Positions 8,222 through 61,389 of a DNA stretch of 64,000 bases are shown here, piece after piece. The DNA is from an uncultured delta proteobacterium (GTDB lineage: Bacteria > Myxococcota_A > Polyangia > Palsa-1104). Position 1 is the stretch's first letter, and the number at the start of each line of letters is the position of its first letter. The notes under the pieces are model-generated. The model had not been told where the DNA came from. It ran no database searches and saw nothing but the letters and a program-made list of their open reading frames with translations. The translations under genes were made by a program, and so were the position numbers. The stretch covers positions 1 to 64,000 of the forward strand of contig CAWAWS010000005.1 of assembly GCA_963785725.1 (NCBI GenBank). Direction: 5' to 3'.

Positions 8222-8422
8222 CTAGCGCGAGGCGGGCGATGGTGCGACGGCGAGCGCGATCAGCTTGGCGGTGCCATTGAAGACGCCCAGTCCGGCGGCG
8301 CCGCGGAGCAGCGTCTGCTGATGGACGCCCGTTTTCTCTGCAACGGTGTCGATGCCGTGCTGGGCGATCGCGGCACGCAATGCAGCGGCGACGCGCGAGT
8401 CGAGAGCTTTACCAGATGCCAT
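8222..8422 (-). CDS. Small helix-turn-helix DNA-binding protein (Cro/AlpA-like position)
   Basis: 66 aa, GIDTVAEKTGVHQQTLLR HTH pattern, SD AAGGAG. Confidence 0.7.
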   Translation of the reverse strand: MASGKALDSRVAAALRAAIAQHGIDTVAEKTGVHQQTLLRGAAGLGVFNGTAKLIALAVAPSPASR

Positions 8423-8500
8423 TGGGGACTCCTTGCTTCAAGGCGGGTCGGGGGCGCGTGAGTGCACCACCGACGAGGTGTTGTGTTCCCTAGGAAGAAG

Positions 8501-9022
8501 TTAAGTACGAATTTGCGCTCGTTCCAGCCCTGCGCCGACAGGCCGATTTAATTTGCCCGGTGGCGGCAGCGACCTCACGAGCGCGATGCCCAGCGGACCG
8601 GGGACCTCGCGCCCGATGTCGGCGCGCTCGTCCGGCGTGCACGCCGCGATGGCCCCGCGGAGCCGCTCGGCCGAGAGCACGCGCCGGCGCGGCGGCTTCG
8701 GCGCCTTCGGTTCCGGAACCGCCCTGGTGCGTTCCGGAACGCCGCTGTCGGCCTTGGCGGCTAGTGCGCGGTACACGCGCGCGGTGCGCTCCTCCAGGCC
8801 GCACTGCCGCAAGAAGTCGCCCTTCTCGCCCTTGCGCAGCGACGGCCAGATCGCGTTGAGGCGGCGGCCGACTTCGAGCCGAGCAGCGCGCGCTGCCGCG
8901 CGTGCCTCACGCCGGTTGTCTAGCGACTCCTGCACCACCAGCCGCGCGTTCGCATAGCCCGTCACGACGCTGCTGGCCCACGCGTGCAGGCCGCGAATCT
9001 CTTCGGCGACAACGTCTTTCAT
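8501..9022 (-). CDS. DUF3102-like phage protein
   Basis: LEVGRRLNAIWPSLRKGEKGDFLRQCGLEERTARVYRALA resembles the DUF3102 pattern; AGGA before the ATG at 9022. Confidence 0.55.
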   Translation of the reverse strand: MKDVVAEEIRGLHAWASSVVTGYANARLVVQESLDNRREARAAARAARLEVGRRLNAIWPSLRKGEKGDFLRQCGLEERTARVYRALAAKADSGVPERTRAVPEPKAPKPPRRRVLSAERLRGAIAACTPDERADIGREVPGPLGIALVRSLPPPGKLNRPVGAGLERAQIRT

Positions 9023-9275
9023 GACCGCGATCCTGTCACGACGCCGCGAAAGTCCTGGTACTGGAGCGCGGCGCTCTGGATCGCGGTGAGAGGTATCCCT
9101 GTGACGACGGGGGCTTAGGTGGTGGAGAATTTCTCTGACGCGGTGCTCATGGCGGCTGGCTAGTTCCGACGCCGGTTCAGCAACGTGCCTGCGGCATTTC
9201 GTCGCACCGAACACAATACGTCAGCGTGCTACGATGCCCCGGCGCTGACGTCTCGGCGATGACTGGGGGACGCGG

Positions 9276-11315
9276 ATGAAGCTCAGGACGTTTCAAGTGA
9301 AAGACTTCAGGTCAATCAACGATTCTGGCTCTATCGATGTAGCGGAGCGGACCGCACTCGTTGGGCGCAACGAGAGTGGAAAGACGACACTACTGAAGGT
9401 TTTGTACTCGCTGAACCCCGCCGATCAAGCCCTGCAGGAGTTCACCCCGGCACGTCACTATCCGCGCGATCGGCGACGAAGAGACTTCCGCGATGACATT
9501 GTCATTCTTGAAACAGAGTGGGAACTCTCCGCTGATGAACAGTCAGAAATTGGCAAGCTTTGGCCCCGCGGGCATGTCGCGAAGACCTTCTCTGCAAGCC
9601 GCCCATACAAGCCCGAACGTTACGGATACTTTCCTGACGCGGAGCCATTGGAAGTGTGGGCCAAGGCAATTGCTGCGCAAGGCTATCACCTGGCAATCGT
9701 CGCGGCGAAGGTTGCCTCGAATGTCGAATACGCGCCCCTATCCAAGACGTTCGCAGTAGCCGAGGAGCTTTGCGCGCAACTCAAGGCCGACCTGATCGCG
9801 GGCGACAACCCGACCGCATCCGCCGGACAGGCGAGTGCGGCACTCGCTGCGCTGCGCGCCGCACTTCGGGAGACGCCGTTTGCCGAAGATGCTGAAGGGC
9901 CGCTATCAGAAACCGAAGGGATCGTCTCAAACGCGGCGACTGATCACGCGAACTCTATCGAGGCGATCAGGTGGGCGTACTCGGTGATGCCAAAGTTCGT
10001 TTACCTAGAGGAATTCGATACTGTTCCTGGTCATCATGACATCAATGCGTACCTTGAGCGGGGCGCTGGTAGCGGCGACAGATCTACCAAAGAGGACAGA
10101 CTATTCGCAAAGCTTCTCAAAATCTCCGAACTTGACGCCGCCGAACTAAAGCAGGCGCTCGTAACCAACAACCATGAGGAGCGTAACCTACTCACCAACC
10201 GCGCTGAGAATCAGGTCACTGAAACGCTTCGCCAGTTGTGGAAGGACCGCGATATCCACGTTGAACTTGCGGTCGACGAGAGACACTTCGATGTCGTCGT
10301 CTCGGACGTCGAGACTAGGGCGAAAGTTCCACTCGACGAGCGCAGTCGAGGCTTTCGCTGGTACTTTTCCTTTTTCATCACGTTCGCAGCTGATACGGAC
10401 GGTGGTGACAAGTCCAACGCAATCATCCTGCTCGATGAGCCAGGCTTGTTCCTTCATGCAACCGCGCAGGACAGCTTGCTCCGCTTCTTCGAGCAACTGC
10501 CGAACCAAATAATTTACACCACGCATTCGCCGTTCATGATCAGCGTTAAAGTGCAGAACCTGGGATCCGTCCGCACCGTGAACCTCTCAAAGGGAGAGGG
10601 CACAACGGTGACGAACAACCCGACCGGCGATGCGAATACCCTCTTTCCGCTGCAAGCGGCCTTGGGATACGACCTCACCCAGACCATGTTTGTCGGCAGC
10701 CGAAACGTAATCGTCGAAGGAGTTACGGACTATTGGTACATTTCGTCGGTCGCTGACTATCTGCGCGATGTGTCTCATTGCCCTCTAGAAGAGGGAATAG
10801 TAGTCACGCCCGCCGGGGGAGCTCAGAAGGTCTCATATATGGTCTCGCTGCTCACCGCTCAACGTCTCCAAGTGGCGATAGTGCTCGACACGGAGCCAGA
10901 GGCGGGTCGTACACGAACGGAGCTACTCGCGTCGAAGCTTATTCGCAGCGAGGGTGTTGTGCTCGTCGGCGACGTCTTCCCGGCCGGGAGCCGGAGTGAA
11001 GCAGACATCGAAGATCTCCTCGACGAAGGCGTCTTTATGAGTCTCGTCCACGAAACCTACGTAAAGGAGCTGTCGGGCAAGACTCTTCAACCAAACAGCG
11101 CCATTCCGCGGATCGTCAAGCGCGTAGAGAAGGCATTCGAAGATATTGGTCTCAAGTTTAACAAGACGCGCGTTGCAAGGCTGTTCCTCTCAAAGATGGG
11201 GTCCGAGCCTACGAAGATGTTGGCGAACAACGCCGAGACGCGGTTCGCCGAGTTACTCAAGAGGATGCAGATAGCGGTCGAGAAGGTCTCGAAAGCTGGC
11301 GACCCCTTCAAGTAA
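9276..11315 (+). CDS. OLD-family ATP-dependent nuclease (ABC ATPase + TOPRIM)
   Basis: DFRSI, Walker A VGRNESGKT, signature RSRGF, Walker B LLDEPGLFLH, TTHSPF, TOPRIM IVEGVTD and ADIEDLL; visibly lower GC than the flanks. Confidence 0.85.
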   Translation: MKLRTFQVKDFRSINDSGSIDVAERTALVGRNESGKTTLLKVLYSLNPADQALQEFTPARHYPRDRRRRDFRDDIVILETEWELSADEQSEIGKLWPRGHVAKTFSASRPYKPERYGYFPDAEPLEVWAKAIAAQGYHLAIVAAKVASNVEYAPLSKTFAVAEELCAQLKADLIAGDNPTASAGQASAALAALRAALRETPFAEDAEGPLSETEGIVSNAATDHANSIEAIRWAYSVMPKFVYLEEFDTVPGHHDINAYLERGAGSGDRSTKEDRLFAKLLKISELDAAELKQALVTNNHEERNLLTNRAENQVTETLRQLWKDRDIHVELAVDERHFDVVVSDVETRAKVPLDERSRGFRWYFSFFITFAADTDGGDKSNAIILLDEPGLFLHATAQDSLLRFFEQLPNQIIYTTHSPFMISVKVQNLGSVRTVNLSKGEGTTVTNNPTGDANTLFPLQAALGYDLTQTMFVGSRNVIVEGVTDYWYISSVADYLRDVSHCPLEEGIVVTPAGGAQKVSYMVSLLTAQRLQVAIVLDTEPEAGRTRTELLASKLIRSEGVVLVGDVFPAGSRSEADIEDLLDEGVFMSLVHETYVKELSGKTLQPNSAIPRIVKRVEKAFEDIGLKFNKTRVARLFLSKMGSEPTKMLANNAETRFAELLKRMQIAVEKVSKAGDPFK

Positions 11316-11367
11316 GATGGGGCGGTGCTACGAAGCGAATCGGATCTCAAAAGGCCAAGAGATAACG

Positions 11368-12972
11368 CTATTTCGGCGACCGAGGCCGGCCCCCGCTACC
11401 ACGATATCCTGAGACTCCCGCCGAGCCAGCCTCGGCGGGAGTAGCCGGATCCTCCCGACTCCCCAGCTTCAGCAAGAATCCCCCATCGAAGACGTAACCT
11501 TCCGGCGTCGGCGTTAACACCAACGCTCCGATGTGTCGTCGCAGTAGCTCGCGCGCGGCCGGCGTATCCTTCTCCGGCGTCTCCAATATCGACCGTACCG
11601 CAGCCTTGATTCGCGCCGGATGCGCGATGACCTTCGCCTTTGGTGTCGCCTTGGTGGCCTGGGCTCGCAGCGCGACTAGATCCGCTTCGGCCGATCGAAT
11701 CGAAGCGTCCAGCGTGTCCGTCAAGCCGAGCTTACCGACCGCGTCGTAGAGATGGCGCAGCTTGCGATCGGCGGCCGCGACTTGCTTGCCGATGATGTCT
11801 TCCTCGTCCGCCTTTTGCGCCGTCGCCAGCCGCTCCGAATACAGCGCTGCCAGCTCATCTTCGATGCCGGGCTTACCGAGCACGCGACGAACTTCGAGCA
11901 GCATGCCGTCGCAGGCCTTGCCCTCTGACACCGTCAGGTTGTTGCTGCAGATCGTGGCGCCGCGCGTGTAGTGGCTGGTGCAGCCGTACTGACGGTAGGT
12001 CCTTCCGTTCTTTCGCCGTTGCCCGACGATGGTCATCGAGCCGCCGCACGCGCCGCAGCGAAGTAGGCCTGCACACAACGAATGCCGCTTCGAGTGGGAT
12101 CCGGCCGGACGACCCGGACCCGACTTGCGCGACTTGAAGCGCGCCTGAGCCGCCGCGAAGTCGTCATCCTCGATGATGCGGAGGTCTGGCCTTTCGAGCG
12201 TGATCCATTTTTCCGGCGCGTTGGGCAGATTGCGACGCTTGCCGGTCGTCCGATCCTTCAGCCACGTCGACTTGTTCCACGTGACCTTGCCGATGTAACG
12301 ATCGTTCAGCAGCATGGCGCGGATCGTCGACGGCACCCAGCCGCGGTTGCCTTTGTGGCCGTTGCCGCCGTCGTGAGGCGCGGGGATCCGCTCGTCGTTC
12401 AAGGAGATCGCGATGGCCTTGAAGGACTGGCCCTCGATCCACATGCGAAAGATGCGACGAACGAGCGCGGCCTCGTCGGCCTTGATGAAGATCTCCGAGC
12501 GCGGATGCTCGGGGTCGCTGGGATTCGCCTCCTTCCGCGTGTCGTAACCAAACGTGCGGCCGCCGGTCGCGAACCCGGTCAGCGCGCGACCTTCCATGCC
12601 GCGGTGGGTCTCGGTGCGAACCATCTCTAGAAACGAATCGTTCATCAGGGCGGTGACGCCGAACGTCAGCCGCGCGCCCATCTCGTCCGACGATCGCCCC
12701 GTCGTGCAGTCGACTACCTTGACCTTGACCGATGGTAAGTCCTCGAAGATGAGCCGCCACGCGGTTCCGAGATCGCGCGCGAGCCGCGACTGGTCGTCGA
12801 CGAGCACGGCGCGAAAAGGACTGCCGCCCCTCCGCCGTGCGTCGCCCAGCATGCGTTGAAGGTCGGCGCGAACGGCATGCGCGCCGCTCATCGCTTTGTC
12901 CTCGTAGACGCCGACGACGTCATAGCCCTCGAGCTCGGCGTGACGACGGCAGCGACGGACCTGATCTTCGGC
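11368..12972 (-). pseudogene. Large serine recombinase lacking its catalytic N-terminus
   Basis: EDQVRRCR..YEDKAMSG..DDQSRLAR resolvase domain, GGRTFGY recombinase domain, LLRCGACGGSM..YGC zinc ribbon, coiled coil; the YxRxS nucleophile motif is missing. Confidence 0.85.
11386..11401 (+). other. tRNA-fMet 3'-end fragment, putative att core
   Basis: CCGGCCCCCGCTACCA matches the 3' end of bacterial initiator tRNA. The T-loop (GGTTCAAAT) is absent upstream. It lies antisense inside the recombinase 3' end. Confidence 0.6.
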
Positions 12973-13400
12973 ACCAATCGCCTTCACCGATGCGAACGGC
13001 GGCCCATTGTCGGACTGGATGGCCGTGGGCAGCCCGTACGCCTCGAAGAGCTCTTCGAAGACGCGCTTGACCTCCTCGGTGCGCGTCTTTTCGACAATCT
13101 TCAGCGCCAGCACCATGCGGCTATGTGCGTCGCGTATCGTCAATGGGTCGCAGCGTCGACGGTCGGCCGTGTACCACCAGCCCTTGAAGTCGACAGTCCA
13201 CAGATCATTCCGACCTTCGACGGCGCAGCTCGGCGCGTGCGCCGGCAGTCCCTTGGACCGTGCCCAATAGCGCCGCTTCTTCGTCAGCGCAGCCCGATCG
13301 AGCACGCGGGCAATGGTCCTCGACGACGGCAGCCCTTCGCCAGCGAGCTGCTTCGCGATCAACGCTTGCAGCTTGCGCGCGCCCCACGTCGGGCAGGCGG
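12973..13400 (-). mobile_element. IS481/IS3-type DDE transposase internal fragment fused in frame to the recombinase
   Basis: PTWGARKL, NDLWTVDFKG, LTIRDAHSR, YGLPTAIQSDNGPPF; the third catalytic residue (E) and both ends are missing. Confidence 0.85.
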
Positions 13401-30997: not shown

Positions 30998-31702
30998 TTA
31001 CACCAGCGGCTTGTCGCTGCGCAGCCGCTCCAGCTCGTCGAGCAGCCGCCCCGGCGCCACGGGCTTCTCGAAGCGCACCTGCACGAAGACCGGCAGCTCG
31101 ATATTGGCAAAGCCGGTCATGGCCAAGAGCGGCACTCTCGGAAAGCGTTCGGCCAGCCGCCGCAACGCCTCGCCATCGGGAGCACCCGGCAAGCGCACGT
31201 CGACGAGCGCCGCCAAGAGCGGTAGGTCCGCCAGCGCGTCCAGCTCGCTCAGGCTGCTCACAGCGACCGGGGCAAAGCCATGTTGGCGCAGGATTTCGCA
31301 CCAGTTGTCGACGAGGGCGGCGTCGTCGTCGATCACGGCCACCACTGCGTTGCGTCGCGCCCGCGCCAAGAGCTGCAAGAGTCGCGGGATGGGCACCGGT
31401 TTCGGCAAGACGTCGAGCAGGCCGGCGTGCTGCGCGTGCTCGTCCTGCCCGGCGCTGTATGCGGTCACCAAAATGACCGGCAGGCCGGCGTCGATTTCAC
31501 GGATGCGTCGCACGACCTCGAGGCCGTTCATCTCCGGCATGCGCATGTCCGACACCAGCACGTCGAAGCGCTGCTGCCGCACCAGCTCGAGCGCGCGGGC
31601 GCCGGAGTCGGCCACCACCGCCTCGTCGCCCATGTCGCCGACAATCTCGGCCAGGTTCTCGGCGAAGGAGACGTTGTCGTCGACGATCAGAAAGCGGCTC
31701 AT
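30998..31702 (-). CDS. Response regulator with two receiver domains
   Basis: IVDDN..VSDMRMP..KP and VIDDD..VDVRLP..KP; start overlaps the kinase stop. Confidence 0.92.
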
Positions 31703-32859
31703 GCGTGGCCCTCCGTCTCCGTTCCCTGAGGCAGGCGCACGACGAAGCGCGCGCCACCGCCGGATCTCGGTTCATAGGCCACCGTCCCGTCGTGACGCTC
31801 GACGAGGCGCTTGACCAGGGCCAGCCCGAGGCCGATTCCGGTGGTCTTGGTCGTAATCAGGGGCTCGAACAGCCGCCGCCGCGTATCGGCGTCGACGCCG
31901 GGGCCACTGTCCTCGACCGCGAGCTCCACCATGGCGCCGTCGACCCGGCCGACGACGCGCACCTCGCCCACCGGCGCCGCAGCTTGTACGGCGTTGTCGA
32001 CGAGATTGCGCAGCACCTGGCGCAGGTGGGCCGCGTCGCCGCGCAAAGGTGGCATCGCCTCCAAACCGACGACCTCGATGCGGACCCCCGGCGGCACGAT
32101 CAGCGACGAGCAAACGCTCTCGATCAGGGGTGCCAGGGCGACCGCCTCGCGCAGCAGCGGCCGCTCGCGAATCATGTCGAGCAGCGAGCTGACGATGTCG
32201 TTGGCGATGCCGAGCTGCTCGCCTACGCGGGTCACGTGCTTGTGCACGCGCGGGTCGCTGCCGGCGTTCTTGTCGATGATGAACATCGAGGACTCGATGA
32301 CGCCGAGCGGGTTGCGCAGCTCGTGGCCGATCGAGCCGATGAGCTGCCCGAAGGTGGCCAGCCGCTCCTTGCGCGCCTGCTGCGCTTCCATGTCCTCGCG
32401 GTAGGTATGCAGCATGATGGCGAGCTCGAGATCGAGCATCTTGCCGATGGCTCGCTGCGTGAGCAGCAGCGTCTCGGGAGCGCTGCGATAGGCGTGCTCG
32501 ACGACCCCTTTGAGCTCGTCGCGGAGCACGTTCATGGCGCCGAACATGTAGTGCTGCGGCAAGCCAATCCGTACGTGCACACGGCCGATGAGGCAGCGCA
32601 GCTGGTAATAATCCTCGTCCCACGGCCCGGCCAGCAGCCAATCCATCCACTGCACGAGCTTGACCTTGAGGTGGCCGACGGTCGACTCGCCGCTCTCGAG
32701 CACGCCGCGCGCCTCATCGTGTTCCTGGATGCGCGCGTAGAAGACATCGGCGATGCGCTGGAAGTGCGGCGCGGCGATCGGCCGCAGCGCGTGGAGCGCC
32801 TGCTCGTGCGGCGCGCTCCACCCGACATAGCGTTTGAGCTCGGCGAACAGCGTCTCCAT
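31699..32859 (-). CDS. Globin-coupled (protoglobin) sensor histidine kinase, AfGcHK-like
   Basis: [33 protein letters not shown] globin domain with distal Tyr and proximal His, H-box [10 protein letters not shown]1, F and G2 boxes. Confidence 0.93.
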
Positions 32860-40372: not shown

Positions 40373-40412
40373 TCGAACGACGCGCGGCGCGTCGACGACC
40401 GATTCGTGACGG

Positions 40413-40512
40413 CGCAGTGTTTGCGGCCCGAATCGGGCTCACGACTCATCGACGCAAGCCTTGCGCGCGATCGGGGTCGAACCGTGCCTTTGGCGCTGGT
40501 CCGTAGGTTGCT
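40413..40512 (+). promoter_or_regulatory. Activator sites + sigma-54 promoter of the cytochrome operon
   Basis: CGCAGTGTTTGCG (40413), CGCAAGCCTTGCG (40453), TGGTCCGTAGGTTGCT (40497). Confidence 0.7.
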
Positions 40513-40524
40513 GAGGCACACCGC

Positions 40525-43020
40525 ATGCGAAGCCGCCCAATCCTCCTCGCGCTGTGTGTGGCTCTCGGCTGCGAAGGTCCGCGCGGGCCGGCGGGAGCGA
40601 CGGGTCCAGCCGGTGCCACCGGTCCGACCGGCGACGCGGGAGCGCCCGGCGCGACGGGTCCGAGCGGCGACGCCGGCACCAACGGCTGCCCCGGCCTCGA
40701 GCCGGGCGCGACCGTCGGCCTGAACGCCGTCGTCGACCTCTCGACTCCGGCCAACGGCAGCTTCTTCGTCGTCGGTGAACGCGCCAAGGTCACGATTCAC
40801 TTCACCAACGGCTGCGGGCAGACCTTGCGGCCGAGCGACCTCGGGACGGCGAGCCTGTATCTGTCGGGACCGCGGCTCGGCTCGCTGACGACGACGGCGG
40901 CCAAGCTGCTCAACTGCGTCACCGATCGCAGCGCGACCGACGGCCAGCACCACTACATCAACCTGCGCAGCCCGAGCTACGCCGATCCGTCGCAAGCCAA
41001 CTTGAGCAGCGCCGCCGACGGCACGCTGACCTACACCTTGGCGCCCGTCAGCGACGAGGCCGCCGGCACGTACACGCTCGGCGTCTGGGCCAAGAGCACC
41101 GACGACAAAGACCAGCTGTTCCCGACGCTCGACTTGCAAATCGGCAACGCCACCGCCGAAACCTTTGCCAGCGGTCCGAGCGCGACGTCGACCTGCTACT
41201 CGTGCCACCGCGGCGCGCAGTCCGGCAAGTCTTATCAGGCGCACATCATCCCCGGCTTCTCGCCCGAGGGAAACTACGCGCTCGACGCCACGCCCATCGC
41301 CACCTGCAAGCTCTGCCACAACCTCGACGGCTACAGCGCCAATCCCACCGTGCGCAAGGTCCACGGCGCACATCGCGGTGCCAACCAGCTGGCGCCCGGC
41401 GTCGCTCACCCCGAGTACGGGCTCGCCGCCGATCCGACGCTGGCCGAGCTCACCGACGTCACGTTCCCGTCGATGCCGGGCGCCGAGAACGACTGCGGCA
41501 AGTGCCACGTCGACGCGCGCTGGAAGACGGCGACGCGGCTCGCCTGCGGCACCTGCCACGACAACCTCTTCTTCGACACCGGCACGCTGACGCCGCCGCG
41601 CACGTTCGGCCCGCCTCCCGCCGGCGCGTGCACGTCGGACGCCGCCTGCGGCGTCTTCGGCGACTTCGCGACCTGCGATTTGCCGTCGGGGAGCTGCTTG
41701 CGCAAGACGCACCCGCCGCAGGCCGACGACGCCCAATGCAGCGTCTGCCACACCCCCGACCCGCCGGGGCTGGCAGCGGTCTCAGCGGTGCACGCGATCC
41801 TGCCGGTCACGGCGAACCCGGGCCTCACGCTGAGCAACGTCACGCTGAGCGGCGCCAGCGGCAGCGGCGGCGCGTTCATTGCCGGCACCGACACGCCGGT
41901 CGTGACCTTCGCGCTCGTCGACGGAACCGGGACGGCCATCGCCACGCTCAAGTCGAGCTCGGTCTTCTCGGCCACCGCCATCGTGTCCGGCCCCACCGAC
42001 GACCGGCAGCGCGTCTACGGACCGCTCACCCTGAAGTCGCAAGGCACGCTCGCCTTCGACGCCACCAAGGGTCTCTATACGTACACCTTCCCGACCGCGT
42101 TTCCGGTCGGCGCGCTCGCGCCCTACAACACGACCGCGCCCTACAGCCGCGCCAACGGGCCCGGCACGTACACGCTGTGGCTCTACGTCAATGAGACCGT
42201 GACCGCGAGCGGTCAGACCTTCCGCGCCGCGGCCAACTCAATCGTCGACTTTCCCGTCGGCACCGCCGGGCCGGTGCAGCCGCGTCAGGTCGTCGCCGAT
42301 GCCGCGTGCAACGGCTGCCACGTCAACGTGCAGGCGCACGGCGGCTCGCGACAGGGCGTCGGCAGCCAGTGCTCGAATTGCCACACCAAGGGCGCGCTCG
42401 ACTTCGGCGTCGGCTCGAAGGGGCTCGCCTGCACGACGAGCGCGCAGTGCGGCGGCAACGCCGCCGGCTGGGAAGCGTGCCAGGACACCAACGGCGACGG
42501 CACGCCCGACAGCTGCGTGGTCACCGTCGATCCCACGCCCGGTCAGACCATCGACTTCGGCGTGCTCGCGCACGACATCCACTACGCCCGCCTCCGCGAC
42601 GGCTACGCCGAGCGCAACAACCTCGTCGCACCGGGCACGCTCACCGTGCTCGGCTATCAGAACGCGCTGTCGAGCTTCGCCACGGATCTGCTTCCGCAGG
42701 ACGTGCGCAACTGCAAGACCTGCCACGCCGACGCCGGCGGCAGCTGCTCGGCGACGCAGCCGTGCGGCATCGGTCAGTCGTGCGTGAGCGGCAGCTGCGT
42801 CAACGTCGCCTGGCTGACGCCGTCGACCCGCGTCTGCACTTCGTGCCACGACGACGCCAGCACCGCCGGCCACGCCGCCATCAACACCTGGACGGACGGC
42901 AGCGGCAACGTCATCGAGACCTGCGCCACCTGCCACGGCTCGGGCGCGCAATTCGCCGTCGACGTCGTGCACCAGATCGCCTCGCCCTACGTGCCGCCCT
43001 ATCCGCGAGAGAAGCAATAG
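40525..43020 (+). CDS. MtrC/OmcA-like decaheme c-type cytochrome lipoprotein
   Basis: Lipobox ALGC, collagen-like G-x-y linker, two (beta-domain + 5 CxxCH) units, RQVVADAACNGCH..AHGGSR, IDFGVLAHDIH, PQDVRNCKTCH. Confidence 0.9.
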   Translation: MRSRPILLALCVALGCEGPRGPAGATGPAGATGPTGDAGAPGATGPSGDAGTNGCPGLEPGATVGLNAVVDLSTPANGSFFVVGERAKVTIHFTNGCGQTLRPSDLGTASLYLSGPRLGSLTTTAAKLLNCVTDRSATDGQHHYINLRSPSYADPSQANLSSAADGTLTYTLAPVSDEAAGTYTLGVWAKSTDDKDQLFPTLDLQIGNATAETFASGPSATSTCYSCHRGAQSGKSYQAHIIPGFSPEGNYALDATPIATCKLCHNLDGYSANPTVRKVHGAHRGANQLAPGVAHPEYGLAADPTLAELTDVTFPSMPGAENDCGKCHVDARWKTATRLACGTCHDNLFFDTGTLTPPRTFGPPPAGACTSDAACGVFGDFATCDLPSGSCLRKTHPPQADDAQCSVCHTPDPPGLAAVSAVHAILPVTANPGLTLSNVTLSGASGSGGAFIAGTDTPVVTFALVDGTGTAIATLKSSSVFSATAIVSGPTDDRQRVYGPLTLKSQGTLAFDATKGLYTYTFPTAFPVGALAPYNTTAPYSRANGPGTYTLWLYVNETVTASGQTFRAAANSIVDFPVGTAGPVQPRQVVADAACNGCHVNVQAHGGSRQGVGSQCSNCHTKGALDFGVGSKGLACTTSAQCGGNAAGWEACQDTNGDGTPDSCVVTVDPTPGQTIDFGVLAHDIHYARLRDGYAERNNLVAPGTLTVLGYQNALSSFATDLLPQDVRNCKTCHADAGGSCSATQPCGIGQSCVSGSCVNVAWLTPSTRVCTSCHDDASTAGHAAINTWTDGSGNVIETCATCHGSGAQFAVDVVHQIASPYVPPYPREKQ

Positions 43021-44205
43021 GTGCGGCTGCCGATGGTGCTGGTCAGCCTCCTCGCGGTCGGCTGCGGCGTGGCGCGCGCCGTCGACGGCCGCCGGTGCGC
43101 CAGCGCCGCCGACTGCGAGCAGATCCATCCCGCCGGCATCGCCGATCCGAGCAGCCCCGACTTTCACGGGCAGCTCGTGCAGTCGCTCGGCTGGAACCTC
43201 GGGCTGTGCGCGCAGTGCCACGGCGCCGACTTCAGCGGCGGCGCCTCGGGCAAGTCGTGCCTGACGTGCCATGCCCAAGGACCGACCGCCTGCACCGTCT
43301 GCCACGCACAACCGCCGGCGACGGGCGCGCACGTCGCCCACGCCGCCAAATACGACTGCACCGTCTGCCACGTCAAGCCGGCAGCGTGGAACGATCCCGG
43401 GCACCTCTTCGCCAGCGACGGCAGCGTCATCACGAGCGCGCGCATCACGTTCGGCGGGCTCGCCGTGAGCCACGGCGCGACGCCGAGCTGGGATGGCGCC
43501 AGCTGCAGCGGCACCTATTGCCACGGCAGCGCCAAGCCGGTCTGGACCGGCGGCGCCGGCCAAGCGGCCTGCGGCAGCTGCCACGCCATTCCGCCCGCCA
43601 ACCACGCCAGCAGCCGCTGCGGCGACTGCCACGTCCGCGTCGCCAACGACCAGGCGCAGATCGTCGACGACGCGCTACACGTCGACGGACAGGTCAGCCT
43701 CGGCGATGACAGCGGCACCTGCCTCGCCTGCCATCCGCAGCCGGGCGGCGCGCACGCCAGCCACACGCAGGCGCTGCACGAGCTGCGCGCCCCGCTCGGC
43801 TGCCCCGAGTGCCACGTCGTGCCCACGATGCTCACGAGCCCCGGCCACATCGATCAGCCGAGCGCGCCAGTCTTCCCCGCCGGCTGGAGCGGGCTCGGCG
43901 CCAACGACGGCGCGCAGCCGACCTGGAGCCTCGCCGCCGGTCAGTGCAGCAGCGTCTACTGCCACGGCGGCGGCAAGACGCTCGGCGCCGACGCCGCCGC
44001 GACGATCATTCGTCAGCCGACGTGGATTCCCGGCAGCGGTGCCGCCAGCTGCGGCGCCTGCCACGGCATCCCGCCCGTCGACGGCGCGCACTCGGCCTCG
44101 ATGGGGCTCGGCGACTGCGCGACGTGCCATCCGACGACGATGAACGCCGGCGGCGGGCTCATCAGCGGCGGCACCCATATGGACGGCGTCATCGATGCGC
44201 TTTAG
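43021..44205 (+). CDS. Multiheme cytochrome lipoprotein with Geobacter-type CxxxxCH...CxxCH domains
   Basis: Lipobox AVGC; 10 CxxCH plus 2 CxxxxCH (CSGTYCH, CSSVYCH), each followed by P.W...CGxCH. Confidence 0.9.
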   Translation: MRLPMVLVSLLAVGCGVARAVDGRRCASAADCEQIHPAGIADPSSPDFHGQLVQSLGWNLGLCAQCHGADFSGGASGKSCLTCHAQGPTACTVCHAQPPATGAHVAHAAKYDCTVCHVKPAAWNDPGHLFASDGSVITSARITFGGLAVSHGATPSWDGASCSGTYCHGSAKPVWTGGAGQAACGSCHAIPPANHASSRCGDCHVRVANDQAQIVDDALHVDGQVSLGDDSGTCLACHPQPGGAHASHTQALHELRAPLGCPECHVVPTMLTSPGHIDQPSAPVFPAGWSGLGANDGAQPTWSLAAGQCSSVYCHGGGKTLGADAAATIIRQPTWIPGSGAASCGACHGIPPVDGAHSASMGLGDCATCHPTTMNAGGGLISGGTHMDGVIDAL

Positions 44206-45460
44206 CGCGCGGCCGCTGTTGCTCGTGTTGCTGCTCGGCGGCGTCGCGCGCGGCGAGACGGTCGACGCCACGCTGACCACGATCCTGCAGGGCCGACAAG
44301 ATCCGCGCGACGGCAACCTTTACACGTCGGTGCCGCTGTATCAGACGATGACGCTGACGATCGACGACGTGCCGCTGCGCCATGTCGACGATCTGCGGCT
44401 CGTCCTGTCGGGCTGGGGCCAGTTCCAATTCGCGCCCAGCGGCTCGGCGCTCGCAGGCACCGGTGACGTCGACGTCGGCTTCGTCGAGGGCAAGCTGTTT
44501 CATCGCCGCCTCGAGCTGCGGCTCGGGCGGCAGCTCGTCTTCGGCGGCGCCGCCCACGCCTTGCCGCTCGACGGCGCGTCGGTCACCGCGCGCCTGCCGC
44601 GCCGACTCGCGCTCAACGTCTATGGCGGCGTGCCGGTGACGCCACGCTTCGGCGTGCACCAGGGCGACTTCGCCGCCGGCGGCCGGCTGTCGCTGCGGCC
44701 GACGGTCGACAGCGAGCTGGGCGCGTCGTTCCTCGAGATGCTCAAGGACGGCCTACAGGCGCGCCAGGATCTCGGCTTCGACGCGCGCTATCGCCCGTCG
44801 CTGCCGGCGCTGCGCTCGCTGGTGCTGACCGGCTATGCGCTGGTGAGCCTCATCGAGCTGCGGCTCATCGAGGGCGACGTCGCCGCCGTCTGGCAGGCGC
44901 GCGCGCCCTTGCAGCTCGGCGTCGACTATCGGCGCACCTCGCCCGATCTGTACCTGCCGCGCAGCTCGATCTTGTCGGTCTTCGCGCAGGAGACGCACGA
45001 CGAGGTCGGCGGCAACCTCTATTGGCGCCCGCTGTCGCGCTTGCGCATCGAGGGCGACTATCACGCCATCCTCGACGACGACGGCTTCGGGCAGCGCGGC
45101 GGCGCGCGCGTCGTCGGCACCTTGGGCGCGGCCTTCACGACGACGCTCACCGCCGAGACGCGCGTGCTGCGCCTCGCCACCGGCGACGGCTACGTGCAGG
45201 GTCGGCTCTACGCCATCCAGCGGCTGTCGACGCGGCTCGTCGGGACGCTCGATCTCGACGCCTACTCGCTCGAGAAGCCGATCAACGGCCAGACCTTCTC
45301 GTTCACCAGCGCGGCCACGCTCGGCTGGGACTTCGCGCCCGGCTGGCGCACGGTGCTGACCGCGATCGCCGACTCGACGCCGCAGGTCGAGCGCCGCTTC
45401 GAGTGCATGGCCAAGGTCGTCTACAACGCCGTCTACCACGTGCGGCGGGTGATTCAGTGA
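44195..45460 (+). CDS. Putative outer-membrane beta-barrel (porin of a porin-cytochrome conduit)
   Basis: Signal peptide, alternating amphipathic strands (LELRLGRQ..LDGASV, LNVYGG, LGVDY, LGWDF); overlaps the multiheme genes on both sides. Confidence 0.75.
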   Translation: MRFSARPLLLVLLLGGVARGETVDATLTTILQGRQDPRDGNLYTSVPLYQTMTLTIDDVPLRHVDDLRLVLSGWGQFQFAPSGSALAGTGDVDVGFVEGKLFHRRLELRLGRQLVFGGAAHALPLDGASVTARLPRRLALNVYGGVPVTPRFGVHQGDFAAGGRLSLRPTVDSELGASFLEMLKDGLQARQDLGFDARYRPSLPALRSLVLTGYALVSLIELRLIEGDVAAVWQARAPLQLGVDYRRTSPDLYLPRSSILSVFAQETHDEVGGNLYWRPLSRLRIEGDYHAILDDDGFGQRGGARVVGTLGAAFTTTLTAETRVLRLATGDGYVQGRLYAIQRLSTRLVGTLDLDAYSLEKPINGQTFSFTSAATLGWDFAPGWRTVLTAIADSTPQVERRFECMAKVVYNAVYHVRRVIQ

Positions 45461-46524
45461 GCGGCGCGCGCGGCTTTGTCCTCGTCGTCGCTTGTGCCGT
45501 CGGCGCCGCCGCCTGTGCGCCGTGGCTGACGATTCGGCTGCCGTACAAAGCCGATCACCTCAAGGTGCCGCACGGGCTGCACGCGCAAGGCAAGGTCGAG
45601 TGCATCGCCTGCCACGACGAGCTCTACGACGCCAAGAACCTCGAGCAGCGCGTGCTGCCCGCCGAGGCCAAGTGCCTCGAGTGCCACCGCGAGCAGAAGG
45701 CCAACGGCCAGTGCGGCTTCTGCCACACCGACGTGACGCGCGCCCGAGCGTGGCCGGCGCGCGAGCCGACGCTGCGCATGTCGCACGCCGAGCACATCGA
45801 TCGAGTCAAGGAGGACTGCCATGTCTGCCACAAGACGCTGCCCAATCCGCTGCGCGGCACCGACGGGACGCCGCCCATGAGCGCCTGCCTCTCGTGTCAC
45901 GAGCATCAACAGGAGTACGACGAGGGCCGCTGCTCTCGCTGCCACATCGACTTGACGCGCTATCCGCTCAAGCCCGTGTCGCTGTTCTCGCACCAAGGCA
46001 ACTTCGTGCGCGAGCACGGCCGCTCGGCGCGCGCCGCGGCCGACACGTGCGCCCAGTGCCACGAGCAGACCTTCTGCAGCGACTGCCACGCGCGCACCGT
46101 GTCGATGCCGATCGAGCAGAAGCTGCCCGAGCGCGTCGACGCCGACTTCATCCATCGCAACGACTTCATCGACCGTCATGTCGTCGAAGCGAAGGCCGAT
46201 CCGGCGTCGTGCCGGCGCTGCCACGGCTCGACCTTCTGCGACGACTGCCATCGCGCGCAGAACCTGACGCCGCAAGCGGCCAACCCGCGCGATCCGCACC
46301 CGGCCGGCTGGTCGTTCCCGGGCGCGGCGCAGTTCCACGGCACCGAGGCGCGGCGCGACATCAACCAGTGCGCCGCCTGCCACGATCAGGGCGCGCGCTC
46401 CATCTGCGTCGACTGCCATAAGGTCGGCGGCATCGGCGGCGATCCGCATCCGGCCGGCTGGTCGGCGCGCCACGGCCGTAACGAGATCGCGCGCAGCTCG
46501 ATGTGCCTCGCGTGCCACTCGTGA
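45457..46524 (+). CDS. 13-heme c-type cytochrome (c3/c7-like repeats), putative lipoprotein
   Basis: GTG start overlapping the porin stop, AAAC lipobox, 13 CxxCH in about 355 aa with HxxH distal ligands. Confidence 0.9.
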   Translation: MSGARGFVLVVACAVGAAACAPWLTIRLPYKADHLKVPHGLHAQGKVECIACHDELYDAKNLEQRVLPAEAKCLECHREQKANGQCGFCHTDVTRARAWPAREPTLRMSHAEHIDRVKEDCHVCHKTLPNPLRGTDGTPPMSACLSCHEHQQEYDEGRCSRCHIDLTRYPLKPVSLFSHQGNFVREHGRSARAAADTCAQCHEQTFCSDCHARTVSMPIEQKLPERVDADFIHRNDFIDRHVVEAKADPASCRRCHGSTFCDDCHRAQNLTPQAANPRDPHPAGWSFPGAAQFHGTEARRDINQCAACHDQGARSICVDCHKVGGIGGDPHPAGWSARHGRNEIARSSMCLACHS

Positions 46525-47129
46525 GCCTCGTCGGCCTCGGCATCGTCGCCGCGCTCTTGCTGCTCTTGCCGCTCGTCGTGCGGCCCTCGTTGACGCTGCG
46601 CAGGGTCGGGCGCGTCTTCGCTTTCGTCGCCATCGTCGTCGTGCCGGTGGCGGTGGGCTTCGGCGGCCTCAGCGAGCACATCGAGCACTCCAAGACGACC
46701 GCCTTTTGCCTCTCGTGCCACGTGATGGAGCCGTACGGACGGAGCTTTCACGTCGACGACCTGGACCATCTACGGCGCAGCACTGGCAATACAGCCGCGT
46801 GCCGCGCGAGACCGCCTGCTTTACCTGCCACACCAACTACACGCTTTACGGCGACTACAAAGCCAAGCTGCGCGGGCTGCATCACGTCTGGGTGCAGTAC
46901 CTCGGAACCATCCCGAAGACGCTCGCGCTGTACACCCCGTACGACAATCGCGAGTGCCTGCATTGCCACGACGGCGCGCGCTCGTTCGTCGAGGCGATCC
47001 CGCACAAGAGCTGAGCTCGCCGCCATCCTCGCCAACCGCAAGTCGTGCGTGGCGAGCGGCTGCCACGCCACCGTGCACGACGTCGCGCACGTCGACGCGC
47101 TCCCGAAGTGGCCCAAGGAGAATCCATGA
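46521..47129 (+). CDS. NapC/NirT (CymA/NrfH-like) membrane tetraheme quinol dehydrogenase, two frameshifts
   Basis: Two TM helices, FCLSCHVM; middle part in ORF 46706-47014 (CFTCH, KAKLRGLHHV, CLHCH); returns to the first frame for CVASGCH. Confidence 0.85.
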   Translation: MSLVGLGIVAALLLLLPLVVRPSLTLRRVGRVFAFVAIVVVPVAVGFGGLSEHIEHSKTTAFCLSCHVMEPYGRSFHVDDLDHLRRSTGNTAACRARPPALPATPTTRFTATTKPSCAGCITSGCSTSEPSRRRSRCTPRTTIASACIATTARARSSRRSRTRAELAAILANRKSCVASGCHATVHDVAHVDALPKWPKENP

Positions 47130-47407
47130 GCGACCGCGCGGGAGCGACTGCGAGCGTCCGGCCCGTTGCGCCGGCGGATCGACCGTCCGGCTCGTTGACC
47201 GCCGAAAGAGGTCATACGAGCGACGCGAAGCTGGAGCGGCGGCTACAACTGTCGGCCGCGCTGGTCATGCTCGGGCTCGTCGTCGAGCTGGTCAGCCTGC
47301 GCTGGCATCACCCGACGGCGTTCGTCCTGTTCGTGCTCGTCGGCGGCCTGGCCATGGCGGCCGGCATCTTGCTGTTCTCGTACTCAATCGTTTCCCGAGG
47401 AGGATGA
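47126..47407 (+). CDS. Small membrane protein (2 TM)
   Basis: SD AAGGAG, overlaps the NapC stop, hydrophobic hairpin. Confidence 0.7.
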   Translation: MSDRAGATASVRPVAPADRPSGSLTAERGHTSDAKLERRLQLSAALVMLGLVVELVSLRWHHPTAFVLFVLVGGLAMAAGILLFSYSIVSRGG

Positions 47408-47409
47408 CC

Positions 47410-47742
47410 ATGCGTTGGATCTTCGTGATGGCGCTCGTGCCGAGCTTGGCGTTTGCAGACGGCAACCCGCAGATCGACCGGCTGTGGCGCGCCAAGTGCG
47501 CCTCGTGCCACGGCGCCGATGGCAAGGCGCAGACCGAGCAGGGCAAGAAGATGGCGATCGGCGACTTGTCGACCGCGGCCGCGCAGGCAAAAGTCACCGA
47601 CGCGCAGATCAAGGCGGCGATCAGCGACGGCGTCAATCGCGACCAAAACGGCGTGCACCAGGAGATGGAAGGCTACAAGGCCAAGCTGAAGCCGGACCAG
47701 ATCGACGGTCTGGTCACGTACGTGCGGGCGCTCAAGAAGTAG
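47410..47742 (+). CDS. Monoheme class I cytochrome c
   Basis: Signal peptide, KCASCHGADG, distal Met (EMEGY), IDGLVTYVRAL. Confidence 0.92.
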   Translation: MRWIFVMALVPSLAFADGNPQIDRLWRAKCASCHGADGKAQTEQGKKMAIGDLSTAAAQAKVTDAQIKAAISDGVNRDQNGVHQEMEGYKAKLKPDQIDGLVTYVRALKK

Positions 47743-47755
47743 CCGCGAACGACCG

Positions 47756-47856
47756 CGCACGCCTTGCCGCCGCCGGCGGCGCCGCCGCAAATCCTGCGCG
47801 AGTCGCGCGGAGGCGACCGCGCCGTCGCGGCTGCGGCTTTCGGCACGCCTCCTGCT
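47756..47856 (+). promoter_or_regulatory. Paired activator sites + sigma-54 promoter
   Basis: CGCACGCCTTGCC (47756), CGCAAATCCTGCG (47786), CGGCACGCCTCCTGCT (47841). Confidence 0.72.
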
Positions 47857-47877
47857 CTGAGCCGAGATGGAGGCCTC

Positions 47878-51210: not shown

Positions 51211-53779
51211 TCAGCGGATGAGCTTGCGCATCAGTCGCCCCTTGACCAGCTCGACCAACCCCAAGTAAGTGAGCGTCGCCAGCGTCAAGAAGGCGAAGAA
51301 CGGCAGCGGCAACGGCACGAAGCCGAGCGCGCCCGCCAGCGGCGAATAGGGCAGCGCCAGCGCCACCGCCGTCGCGCCCAGCGTCGTCAGCACGAGCGCC
51401 GGGCTGGGCCGATTGCGCCACGGCCGCCCAACGGTGCGAATGACGAACAGCACCAGCGTCTGCGTCGCCAGCGACTCGACGAACCAGCCCGTGTGAAACA
51501 GCCGCTCGGACGCGTGAAACAGCCGCAGCAGCACGAAGAAGGTCAGAAAGTCGTAGATCGAGCTGAGCGGGCCGATCCACAGCATGAAGCTGCGAATCGC
51601 GCCGATGTCCCACTTGCGCGGCTTGATCGTGTAGGCCGGGTCGACGCGATCGAGCGGGATCGTCAGCTGCGCCAGGTCGTAGAGGAAATTATTGAGCAGG
51701 ATCTGCGTCGGCAGCATCGGCAGGAACGGCAAGAAGAGCGACGCGCCCGCCATCGACAGCATGTTGCCGAAGTTGGAGCTGGTGCCCATGAGCAGGTACT
51801 TGAGCACGTTGCCGAAGGCGCGCCGCCCCTCGACGATGCCGGTATGCAGGACGTCGAGGCCCGGCCGCATGAGGATGACCTCGGCGGCGTCGCGCGCCAC
51901 GTCGACGGCGCTGGCGACCGAGATGCCGACATCGGCGGCGCGCAAGGAAGGCGCATCGTTGATGCCGTCGCCGAGGAAGCCGACGACGTGGCCGCGACTC
52001 TTGAGCGCCATCAGAGATCCGGTTCTTCTGCCCGGGGCTCAGCCGCGCGAACAGCGCCACCTCCTCGGCGCGCTTGCCCAGCGCCGCGTCGGTCAGCCGA
52101 CCGATGTCGGCGCCCGAGAGCACATCGTCGACGGGCAAGCCGACGCGCGCGCAGACATGACGGGCAACGGGCTCGTTGTCGCCGGTGAGGATCTTGACCA
52201 CGACGCCGTCGGCGCGCAGCCGCTCGAGCATGGCCGCGGCGTCGTCGCGAGGCGGGTCGCAAAAGGCGAGGAAGCCGAGGAGCGTGAGGTCGCGCTCGTC
52301 GCCGGCGTCGAGCCCGTCCGGGCGTGTGACCGCGGCGATCGCCACCGCCAGCACGCGCAACCCCTCTTCGCCGAGCGCACCGAAGGTCGCTTGCGCGCGC
52401 GCCTGCTCGGCGTCATCGAATGGGATGCGGCGACCGTCGCGCTCGACCGCGCTGCACAGCGGCAGCACCGACTCCGGCGCGCCCTTGGTGACGAGCAGAT
52501 GCTGCGCGTCGTGCTGCAAGACGACGGAGACGCGCCGGCGCTCGAAGTCGAACGGGATCTCGTCCGTCTTGCGCCAACCTTCGGCCGGCGTGCACGGTCG
52601 CGCCAGGATGGCGGCGTCGAGCGGGCTCTTGATGCCGGTCTCGTAAACCGCGTTGAGATAGCCGTGCTCGAGCACACGCGGCGCGTCGTTGCCGGCGATG
52701 TCGACGGTGCGCTCGAGCGCGGTCGAGCCGGTGGTGAGCGTGCCGGTCTTGTCGCTGCACAACACATCGATGCTGCCGAGGTTCTGGATCGCCGCCAGCT
52801 GCTTCACGATCACGTGCGCACGGCCCATGCGCACCGCGCCGCGCGCCAGCGTCACCGTCGTGATCATGGGCAGAAACTCGGGCGTCATGCCGACGGCGAG
52901 CGCGACGGCGAACAGCAGCGACTGAAAGGCGTCGCGATGCAGCAGCACGCTCACCATCACGATGAACAGCACGAGAAACAGCACGGTGCGCGCGATGAAG
53001 AGGCCGAACTGCCGCGTGCCGCGCTCGAACTCCGTCGGCGGCGGGTGATGCGCCAGCCGGGCAGCGATGTCGCCGAAGGCGGTGGCCGCGCCGGTAAAGG
53101 CCACCCGCGCCGTCGCCGTGCCGCTGACGACGGAAGTGCCGAGGAAAACCATGTGCGCCGCGTCGGCGTCGCGCGAGACCGGCAGCACCCCCGAGCGCTT
53201 CTCGACCGGCAGCGACTCGCCCGTCAGCGCCGCCTGCGCCACATGCAAATCGTGGGATGACAAGAGCCGGCAGTCGGCGGGGACCAAGTCTCCCGCGCAC
53301 AGCTTGACGAGATCGCCGGGGACGATTTCGCGGCGCGGCAGCTCTTGCCAACGACCGTCGCGCATGACGGTCGCCGTCGGCGCGACCGTCGCCTGCAGAC
53401 GCTCCACGGCGCGCGCCGAGCGATAGGTCTGCACGAAGTCGATGGCGATGCCGAGCACGACCATGAGCCCGATGATCGCCGCGTCCACGCGTTCGCCGAG
53501 CACGGCCGAGACCACCGCGGCGATGGCCAAGAGAAGTATCAACGGGCTGGCCGCGAAGTGACCGAGCGCTCGCAAGGGCGACCACCGGTCGGCCGTCGCC
53601 GATTCATTGAAGCCGTGACGCTCGCGCAGCGCGCGCGCCGCTTCGTCGGTCAGTCCGGCGTCGTCAGCGGCGGCGGATTCGCCGCCGGGCGCAGCCGCCT
53701 CGTTCGCCAGCGACGACCCCGCGATCCCCGAAGCGGCGGCGCGGCGATCGCGAGCAGAGACGCGAGTGACAGGGCGCAT
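51211..53779 (-). CDS. mgtA: Mg2+-importing P-type ATPase, one frameshift near 52012
   Basis: LTGES, PEFLPMI, DKTGT, IPFDFERRR, TKGA, TGDN; continues GDGINDA, SSNFGNMLS, QILLNNFLYD, TGWFVES. Confidence 0.9.

Positions 53780-60015: not shown

Positions 60016-61389
<1,374 letters not shown>

Follow-up and report, generated by a model that had tools for sequence, protein, structure and literature searches.

The stretch of DNA analysed here (the window) covers the opening 64 kb of contig C5 (CAWAWS010000005.1) from the 8.9 Mb, 88% complete genome (G000) of an uncultured bacterium. Its main subject is a run of seven plus strand genes, g1 to g7, at 40525-47742, which encodes a porin and several multiheme cytochromes of a putative extracellular electron transfer (EET) conduit. 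According to the NCBI names of the best matches, the closest named proteins to the window products belong to Polyangia metagenome-assembled genomes (MAGs), in agreement with the apparent myxobacterial host proposed in a first-pass annotation of the window. All seven open reading frames (ORFs) described in that annotation were recovered at the same positions and on the same strand:

40525..43020, plus strand: g1, MtrC/OmcA-family decaheme lipoprotein (Cys16, collagen-like linker, 5+5 hemes, 10 CxxCH)
43021..44205, plus strand: g2, 12-heme lipoprotein with 10 CxxCH and 2 CxxxxCH motifs and a Geobacter-type CxxxxCH domain
44195..45460, plus strand: g3, predicted outer-membrane beta-barrel of 421 aa with no heme motif (22 strands in the model)
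45457..46524, plus strand: g4, 13-heme lipoprotein of 355 aa with 13 CxxCH motifs, a c7-like N-terminal half, and the hemes of the C-terminal seven at residues 180-353
46521..47129, plus strand: g5, NapC/NirT-family tetraheme with two N-terminal hydrophobic segments, CxxCHxM, and 3 CxxCH plus 1 CxxxxCH
47126..47407, plus strand: g6, small two-helix membrane protein with no family and no heme (64 aa in the relative G004)
47410..47742, plus strand: g7, class I monoheme cytochrome c predicted to be periplasmic, with a signal peptide and CASCH (PF00034 40.0, cut-off 21.3)

The successive gaps between these genes are 0, -11, -4, -4, -4 and +2 nt. From g1 to g7 the heme motifs number 10, 12, 0, 13, 4, 0 and 1, and sum to the 40 estimated earlier when all four motifs of g5 are counted. 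In 2000 residue shuffles of each protein the maximum number of CxxCH motifs was 1 for g1 and 2 for both g2 and g4.

The putative outer-membrane conduit is encoded by g3 and g4. No family could be assigned to g3 in Pfam or NCBIfam, but its model folds as a 22-strand barrel with a predicted local distance difference test (pLDDT) score of 89.8, which bears out the barrel predicted at 44195-45460. Fold searches retrieved generic 18-24-strand barrels only, with no family named. The alignment with 6R2Q_B (Z 16.0, root mean square deviation (rmsd) 4.8, 333 aligned) is tied with those of unrelated barrels, the profile of the porin has 0 matches among PDB sequences at E 1, and an Atlas search with g3 and g6 returned unnamed clusters only. 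The lipobox Cys20 of g4 is invariant in 35/35 sequences, so g4 is a lipoprotein, and its PDB sequence search gave weak matches to c7-type chains. When the two proteins were predicted as a complex, residues 180-353 of g4 were placed inside the g3 barrel with a score of 0.73 (best of 3 controls, 0.00), and the mark used for this score is reached by 116/157 solved and 2/215 mismatched pairs. The prediction runs share at least 75% of contacts and the pLDDT of the partner is at least 70. This supports binding between g3 and g4, but no one orientation. Elsewhere in the genome, a second 13-CxxCH cytochrome (411 aa) is encoded on contig C16 (L082:6360-9037) between the gene for a 486-aa protein without a family and, after it, two DsbA-like genes. 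The g3 profile finds no match here, and the locus is possibly another porin-cytochrome pair. A 29-CxxCH cytochrome (803 aa) lies behind a 908-aa 4Fe-4S protein on contig C6 (L080:3916-9115).

Judged by comparison with family members and by the published figures, g3 and g4 are homologues of the porin-cytochrome (Pcc) group IV pair of Anaeromyxobacter (Adeh_3391/3392, A2cp1_3538/3539, AnaeK_3474/3475; PMC4245776; here and below, cited papers are referred to for the portions consulted). In both cases a porin gene is followed by a gene for a 12-14-heme cytochrome of about 340-350 aa (~340 aa in the definition of the group), and the 22 strands of g3 fall within the range of 18-22. The porin profile matches 78/81 genomes of the Anaeromyxobacteraceae. 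In A. oryzae Red232 the porin profile (E 4.6e-128) and the cytochrome profile (E 5.3e-96) match adjacent genes, and the cytochrome gene has 12 hemes. Two 12-heme proteins of this family (loci L058 and L059) have 344 aa and are mutually 98% identical, and the same figures (344 aa, 12 hemes, 98%) were given for Anaeromyxobacter group IV Pcc by Shi 2014 (PMC4245776). Over aligned columns, g3 is 36-42% and g4 45-48% identical to five Anaeromyxobacteraceae members. In a g4 tree (55 sequences, FastTree, midpoint root) the clade of the host's order is sister to Anaeromyxobacteraceae with a support of 0.90, a topology that is silent on the direction of transfer. According to Shi 2014, who cites Nissen 2012, Adeh_3392 is more abundant under Mn(IV) reduction, and the table of the same paper gives GSU2644 and GSU2726 (24%) as nearest to the group IV porin and GSU2643 (30%) as nearest to its cytochrome (PMC4245776).

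The first-pass annotation had regarded the conduit as a Geobacter-like porin joined to Shewanella-type components. This has to be revised, as the pair is of a myxobacterial Pcc type known from Anaeromyxobacter since 2014. An already characterised operon, for example in Anaeromyxobacter, had been named as what would remove the novelty, and such a precedent exists for the two-gene core but not for the rest of the operon. In the portions consulted, group IV is a two-gene cluster with no outer-membrane cytochromes, whereas here five genes are added in a seven-gene unit, the cytochrome has 13 hemes and the promoter is of the NmpR/sigma54 type described below. Also, the group IV cytochrome is called periplasmic (PMC4245776), whereas a conserved lipobox was found in this analysis. 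Among 21 Anaeromyxobacteraceae porin loci, a 12-14-heme gene adjoins the porin in 20, a g2-like gene in 5 and an MtrC-family decaheme in 3. In a single-protein search A. oryzae was the sole species returned. The decaheme of A. oryzae Red232 is 54% identical to g1 and lies apart from its porin pair; A. oryzae was rejected as a carrier of the operon, there being no porin or 13-heme gene within 10 kb of the decaheme homologue.

Of the remaining cytochromes, g1 scores 106.8 bits against PF22113 (above the cut-off of 30) and 167.4 bits against TIGR03507 (below the curated cut-off of 209.3), and has no match in a PDB sequence search at E 0.001. Its structure model (pLDDT 92.6) can be aligned with OmcA (Z 19.6, rmsd 3.1, 282 aligned) and MtrF (Z 15.9, rmsd 5.3, 517 aligned), and the top 15 Foldseek matches are all UndA, MtrC, OmcA or MtrF. 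Together with the 5+5 CxxCH motifs of a lipoprotein and the alternating beta and heme domains, this agrees with the Shewanella-type surface reductase proposed earlier. Three four-Cys modules are inserted at residues 369-391, 636-664 and 741-758, in addition to a C55/C97 pair, and every insert Cys is conserved in all, or all but one, of 117 close homologues (116 or 117), while three distant homologues mostly lack them. In MtrC a CX8C disulfide is located in domain III. No non-heme Cys is found in the corresponding part of g1, between residues 391 and 636, and its single CX8C sits inside the insert at 375. The CX8C of MtrC is a redox disulfide (PMC9973256). These features suggest that g1 is a modified MtrC-family decaheme, presumably located on the cell surface. 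At L048:7946-9655 and 10001-12487 the orphan decaheme of A. oryzae adjoins a gene with cysteine-rich repeats that resemble the g1 inserts by eye. As to g2, both TIGR01904 (68.4, cut-off 27) and PF09698 (37.2, cut-off 21.7) are matched above their cut-offs, a PDB sequence search gave nothing better than E 0.67, and the protein is probably a surface relay.

The NapC/NirT tetraheme claimed for g5 is partly upheld: the family, the four motifs and the membrane anchor are found in the relatives, but the deposited gene itself is frameshifted. Following position 46771 there is a 1-bp deletion, and a compensating 1-bp insertion lies near 47011; between them hemes 2 and 3 are in another frame, because of which the continuous ORF has 2/4 motifs. 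This ORF scores 23.1 against PF03264, below the cut-off of 24.1, whereas intact relatives score 36.4-38.3, above it, and the four motifs lie within one ORF in 8 relatives. The best PDB match of g5 is NrfH (E 0.2). In its original frame the shifted block has 79% amino-acid identity to G004, cydA of the same genome (C29:85769-87097) has a compensating double frameshift resembling that of g5, and related Logan contigs show 2 gaps over 46637-47127, a count fitting an unshifted g5, with the gap positions not listed. An assembly error therefore seems a more likely source of the indels than pseudogenisation. In a frame test of 24 loci against relatives, g5 was the sole frameshifted one. A codon-model scan for internally shifted blocks marked 141/6627 ORFs in the host genome and 8/504 in control loci and was thus undiscriminating; it does not mark the assembly as rich in errors.

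The small g6 adjoins g5 in all six relatives where it was found. In the host it carries approximately 30 extra N-terminal residues derived from an in-frame 90-bp dispersed repeat at 47126-47221, which begins ATGAGCGA and has a short direct repeat at its ends. The repeat has 26 other matches in the genome (73-86% identity, some in tandem) and is missing from the contig of a close relative. The position of the g7-type monoheme gene within the operon varies among the relatives.

In the host's uncultured Polyangia order the porin is found in 15/41 genomes and the decaheme in 17/42. Among the 41 genomes scored for both, 14 have porin and decaheme, 1 has a porin fragment only and 2 have the decaheme only. 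The expanded operon recurs in about 40% of the genomes of the order. In 17 other loci of the order the decaheme, g2, porin, g4 and monoheme recur where contigs allow, except in the degenerate L027, and in 2 of these 17 an octaheme gene comes after g4. Two more decaheme loci of the order (G032, G035) have no porin nearby. In one genome (G017) there are three porin copies, and at one of its loci (L020, contig C68) two decahemes flank the conduit, with a four-heme class I cytochrome upstream. The first-pass annotation had proposed that the whole path from the quinone pool to the cell surface is encoded in one unit. The porin conduit, MtrC-family decaheme, CxxxxCH cytochrome, NapC-family protein and monoheme c are indeed conserved together, and the part that fails for the present sequence is the NapC gene with its frameshift.

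At the level of the phylum, 98/401 sampled Myxococcota genomes matched the porin profile at E 0.001, some of them weakly. Of 20 strong distant porin loci, the 12-14-heme gene adjoins in 20/20, a g2-like gene is present in 15/20 and an MtrC-family decaheme in 3/20; in two loci (L029, L041) the five types of cytochrome and porin are all present but differently arranged. MtrC combined with this conduit is therefore recurrent in Myxococcota. Given the 98/401 porin matches, EET may be common in this phylum, which is regarded as aerobic. In other families of the phylum (L030, L033, L036, L037), g2 homologues next to the porin reach 36 heme motifs.

The promoter region of g1 and its putative regulators comprise the following features, which resemble the NmpRSTU system of Myxococcus xanthus:

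40412..40426, plus strand: distal NmpR-type enhancer box, 1 mismatch against the consensus GCGCA-N5-TGCGC, perfect GCA-N5-TGC core
40452..40466, plus strand: proximal NmpR-type box with a perfect core and 1 mismatch; 25 nt separate it from the distal box and 58 nt from the g1 ATG
40496..40512, plus strand: sigma54 -24/-12 element, its end 12 nt ahead of the g1 ATG
47755..47860, plus strand: next NmpR-box pair and sigma54 site, ahead of CBS genes, marking the 3' limit of the seven-gene unit
31699..32859, minus strand: NmpU/AfGcHK-like protoglobin oxygen-sensor histidine kinase (PF11563, HisKA, HATPase)
30998..31702, minus strand: NmpT-like double-receiver protein (PF00072, two stretches)
60016..61389, minus strand: NmpR-like response regulator of the sigma54 enhancer-binding type, whose own promoter is of the NmpR-box kind

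The g1 promoter thus has two perfect-core boxes spaced within the 5-50 nt range of the NmpR regulon, in an intergenic region and upstream of a sigma54 site, and the g1 transcript would be near-leaderless. This promoter, with the low-oxygen island around it, is the most telling feature of the locus and was overlooked in the first-pass annotation. A strict search for the box pair with the sigma54 site, with thresholds set after the island around the operon had been seen, gave 13 hits in the 8.9 Mb genome, 7 of them in the island and one of these at g1. Decoy box spacers of 3, 4, 6, 7 and 8 gave 0, 0, 0, 1 and 0 hits. A sigma54 score of at least 11 precedes 10/23 island genes as compared to 141/3798 genes genome-wide. 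Sixteen upstream regions of related decahemes were scored, locus L097 being left out for lack of a scored start. The full architecture is present in 5 (G004, G002, G017-C417, G011, G521; the sigma54 site of G521 is weaker) and a partial one in 3 (G014, G006, G010-C48). In G004, G002, G017-C417, G011 and G010-C48 a box lies 57-67 nt and the sigma54 element 12-13 nt before the start.

Orthologues of NmpU, NmpT, NmpS and NmpR are found in the host genome, with orthology assigned by synteny. The NmpU-like kinase matches the globin-coupled kinase 5OHE in PDB at E 2.9e-54. In three Anaeromyxobacteraceae genomes the NmpR-like regulator has its best matches (56-57%) on the strand opposite to the NmpU-like kinase and 3-5 kb away from it, and in the described system nmpR is likewise placed beside a kinase gene on the opposite strand (PMC11841059). 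A REC-histidine kinase on contig C24 (L089:8648-9697) is 63% identical to the C-terminal part of a kinase located 1.8 kb after the globin kinase in G002, and is probably NmpS, separated here from nmpU and nmpT. A four-CBS gene with an NmpR-like box lies near it. Apparently, then, the operon is switched on by an oxygen sensor through NmpR, as far as such motifs and orthologues can tell.

The island spans window positions 31000-64000 and continues at C5:64001-84000 (L091). Usp and CBS genes, six of each, are neighbours of the operon in it, as are VIT1, genes for an alcohol dehydrogenase and a CoA transferase, the protoglobin kinase with its double receiver and the NtrC-type activator, and beyond the window a phosphoketolase and an alternate F1F0 ATPase are found. 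We regard it as a large low-oxygen or dormancy island. A P-type ATPase and a phosphoglucomutase are also encoded, and the P-type ATPase gene (51214-53530, minus strand) is apparently split across two frames. In several island genes only 12-13 nt separate the sigma54 element from the start codon that follows, which suggests that their transcripts are near-leaderless. Outside the island, a DUF5906 primase-like gene, an OLD-family ATPase-TOPRIM gene and a large serine recombinase occupy window positions 4478-13116, which is likely an integrated element carrying a defence gene.

The host genome encodes two heme-copper oxidases, a bd oxidase gene and an alternative-complex-III-like cluster; these oxygen-respiring enzymes fit the earlier remark that the lineage is mostly regarded as aerobic. 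Futalosine menaquinone genes (MqnA/D), cytochrome c assembly genes and four secretins are also present. In the same genome NrfA is below the cut-off and no NarG-sized molybdopterin match was seen. RuBisCO is found in 0/42 genomes of the order, and autotrophic iron oxidation via RuBisCO was rejected. In a search of sequencing runs all shares were at most 0.09, and no RNA run was among those listed, so that the runs point neither to expression nor to a habitat.

On this basis we consider it probable that the operon serves an oxygen-respiring heterotroph as an outward conduit for electrons, induced by hypoxia. This is favoured because g3 and g4 are homologous to a Mn(IV)-linked Pcc pair and g1 has the fold of the Shewanella surface reductases; because the porin and the 12-14-heme gene adjoin almost throughout the distant and Anaeromyxobacteraceae loci; because the NmpR/sigma54 architecture is found at g1 and an NmpR target of M. 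xanthus is up 6.5-fold in hypoxia (PMC11841059); and because the host has menaquinone, cytochrome c assembly and secretin genes, with no NrfA above the cut-off, no NarG-sized match and no RuBisCO found. When oxygen drops, the NmpU-like protoglobin kinase would go quiet, and the NmpS/NmpR relay would start sigma54 transcription of the dormancy island (Usp, CBS, fermentation and ATPase genes) and of the operon. Menaquinol would be oxidised by the NapC-family g5, probably with g6, and electrons could cross the periplasm on g7, the monoheme protein, on the c7-like N-terminal half of g4, or on both. The outer membrane would be crossed through the C-terminal seven hemes of g4 plugged in the g3 barrel, with the lipoproteins g2 and g1 as outside recipients. 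The MtrC-fold g1, on its collagen-like tether, could then reduce Fe(III)/Mn(IV) oxides or humic quinones, and in this way an oxygen-respiring heterotroph may stay in redox balance, or respire to some extent, in soil microsites that are anoxic.

Several observations weigh against the outward, hypoxia-induced conduit. The box spacing of 25 nt at g1 departs from the 14-15 nt preferred by NmpR, whereas the other six island promoters, like those in G004, G002, G017-C417, G011 and G521, have a spacing of 15-16 nt; in M. xanthus a 24-nt spacing occurs in one bound and one unbound promoter (PMC11841059). Eight of the 16 related decaheme upstream regions lack the architecture, and 3 of these 8 belong to genus g15, in which a sensor globin is found in 0/8 genomes. 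G003 has an NmpU homologue yet no boxes at its decaheme, while boxes or a sigma54 site occur in G521, G014 and G006 with no NmpU match, these genomes being incomplete. In five Anaeromyxobacteraceae porin upstream regions that were scanned the architecture was not found. In its known form, the NmpR regulon is for the use of oxygen rather than for anaerobic respiration (PMC11841059). In addition, g5 is frameshifted in the deposited assembly, and NapC is present in 9/17 other loci of the order, some of which are ended by contig edges. The score of the g3-g4 complex may reflect likeness to solved porin-cytochrome complexes, and with a genome 88% complete the gene absences are weak evidence.

An opposite flow of electrons has been proposed for Sideroxydans mtoAB-mtoD-cymA, and here too Fe(II) or reduced humics might be oxidised at the surface under micro-oxia, with g7 and g5 feeding terminal oxidases and the quinone pool (lithoheterotrophy). 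That the cluster includes both a NapC gene and a monoheme c, as with cymA and mtoD, would suit this uptake, as would the oxygen utilisation served by the M. xanthus NmpR regulon (PMC11841059) and the oxidases and alternative-complex-III-like cluster of the host. We find it unlikely, given that the fold of g1 is that of reductases from metal reducers, that RuBisCO was found in 0/42 genomes of the order, and that the core homologue is tied to Mn(IV) reduction while, as of Shi 2014, no pcc cluster had been found in Fe(II) oxidisers (PMC4245776). A bidirectional battery, in which electrons are dumped on humics or iron in anoxia and recovered once oxygen returns, appears more doubtful still. It would make use of both the quinol-linked NapC and the class I monoheme c, of the full aerobic chains of the host and of the described reversibility of CymA-type proteins (PMC6295460), and induction by an oxygen sensor suits fluctuating redox, but it needs two activities where one accounts for the data.

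The VIT1 iron-transporter gene 4.7 kb upstream, and the cysteine-rich inserts and long tether of g1, which could mediate adhesion, bring to mind a role without energy conservation, such as reductive iron mobilisation, redox sensing or electron exchange with neighbours or prey. Forty hemes and a quinol dehydrogenase suit bulk electron flux, however, and the promoter bears an oxygen-response signature, so we give this role slightly less weight than the battery. The explanation we find hardest to credit is that the operon is decaying in this strain, the NapC frameshifts being real and the path from the quinone pool cut. The two indels in g5, the repeat insertion in g6 and the singularity of g5 among the 24 loci compared with relatives would fit such decay; against it stand the conserved original frame of the shifted block, the same compensating double shift in cydA, which points to an assembly error, the gap counts of the Logan contigs, and the intact g1-g4, g7 and promoter.

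The outward conduit induced by hypoxia is thus the reading we retain. A bolder version of it, which we put forward tentatively and with some doubt, is that this uncultured Polyangia order has wired a complete mineral/humic conduit to a globin-sensed NmpRSTU switch as its main anaerobic outlet, by means of a disulfide-decorated MtrC subfamily specific to myxobacteria and a 22-strand porin/13-heme complex whose structure is unsolved. If true, Anaeromyxobacter would be no exception but an example of an EET capacity found across the phylum, and the myxobacteria of soils would be overlooked iron and humic reducers. The metal-reduction route of Anaeromyxobacter has so far rested on a two-gene prediction, and the present locus shows its core with likely partners in a testable order of parts. 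The promoter ties an experimentally defined oxygen-sensing regulon to EET and predicts when the conduit is made, and the operon, being compact and equipped with a quinol dehydrogenase of its own, is a candidate module for use in electro-biotechnology.

In the literature searched, with most subscription papers and preprint supplements outside its scope, the operon, the modified decaheme and a link between NmpR and EET were not described. MtrC and ExtABC matches in Myxococcota MAGs have already been mentioned (10.1101/2022.03.26.485925), and the supplements of that preprint may list such clusters. Co-occurrence of Mtr and Pcc is known in Desulfobacterota (PMC12133095), and other phyla are dealt with in 10.64898/2026.05.27.727921. 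The literature covered also included PMC11475568 and PMC12307469. The idea that a linked quinol dehydrogenase is novel was rejected: such genes lie inside EET clusters of Rhodoferax, Ferrimonas and Sideroxydans (PMC6295460), and a cymA-type linkage is found in almost all MtrCAB groups (PMC8805035). With the core pair known, what is new is the expanded seven-gene operon, the modified decaheme and the NmpR link.

Compared with the M. xanthus NmpRSTU system (PMC11841059), the protoglobin kinase, double receiver, NtrC-like activator, paired GCGCA-N5-TGCGC boxes with sigma54 sites and the Usp and CBS targets are alike. The differences are that the NmpS-like gene is apparently on another contig, that the regulon is gathered in one island, and that no EET genes are among the M. 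xanthus targets in the portions consulted of that paper. With Geobacter sulfurreducens ExtABCD/ExtEFG (PMC6148476), the likeness lies in gene order, g2-g3-g4 paralleling extA-extB-extC, in the identity table published for group IV (PMC4245776) and in the CxxxxCH domain of g2. In the portions consulted, however, ExtC has 5 hemes as against 13 in g4, ExtA is predicted to be periplasmic whereas g2 is a lipoprotein, and the ext clusters are without a NapC gene (PMC6148476). The Sideroxydans mtoAB-mtoD-cymA cluster similarly combines a porin-cytochrome pair, a monoheme c and a NapC-family gene, but its porin and cytochrome are of other families, and here two extra surface cytochromes are encoded and no RuBisCO was found in the order. 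Shewanella MtrCAB/OmcA with CymA shares the MtrC-fold decaheme lipoprotein and the NapC-family quinol dehydrogenase, although g1, unlike MtrC, has no domain III CX8C and carries three four-Cys inserts. MtrAB of Shewanella consists of a 26-strand MtrB and a decaheme MtrA, in contrast to the 22-strand, 421-aa barrel and unrelated 13-heme cytochrome found here; membership in MtrAB/MtoAB was rejected on the strand number, the 13 hemes of g4 and the lack of any PDB sequence match for the porin profile. Rhodoferax, Ferrimonas and other MtrCAB clusters already bundle cymA and periplasmic carriers as in the present locus (PMC6295460, PMC8805035). The operon would accordingly work like MtrCAB plus CymA, but around a core that is group IV Pcc.

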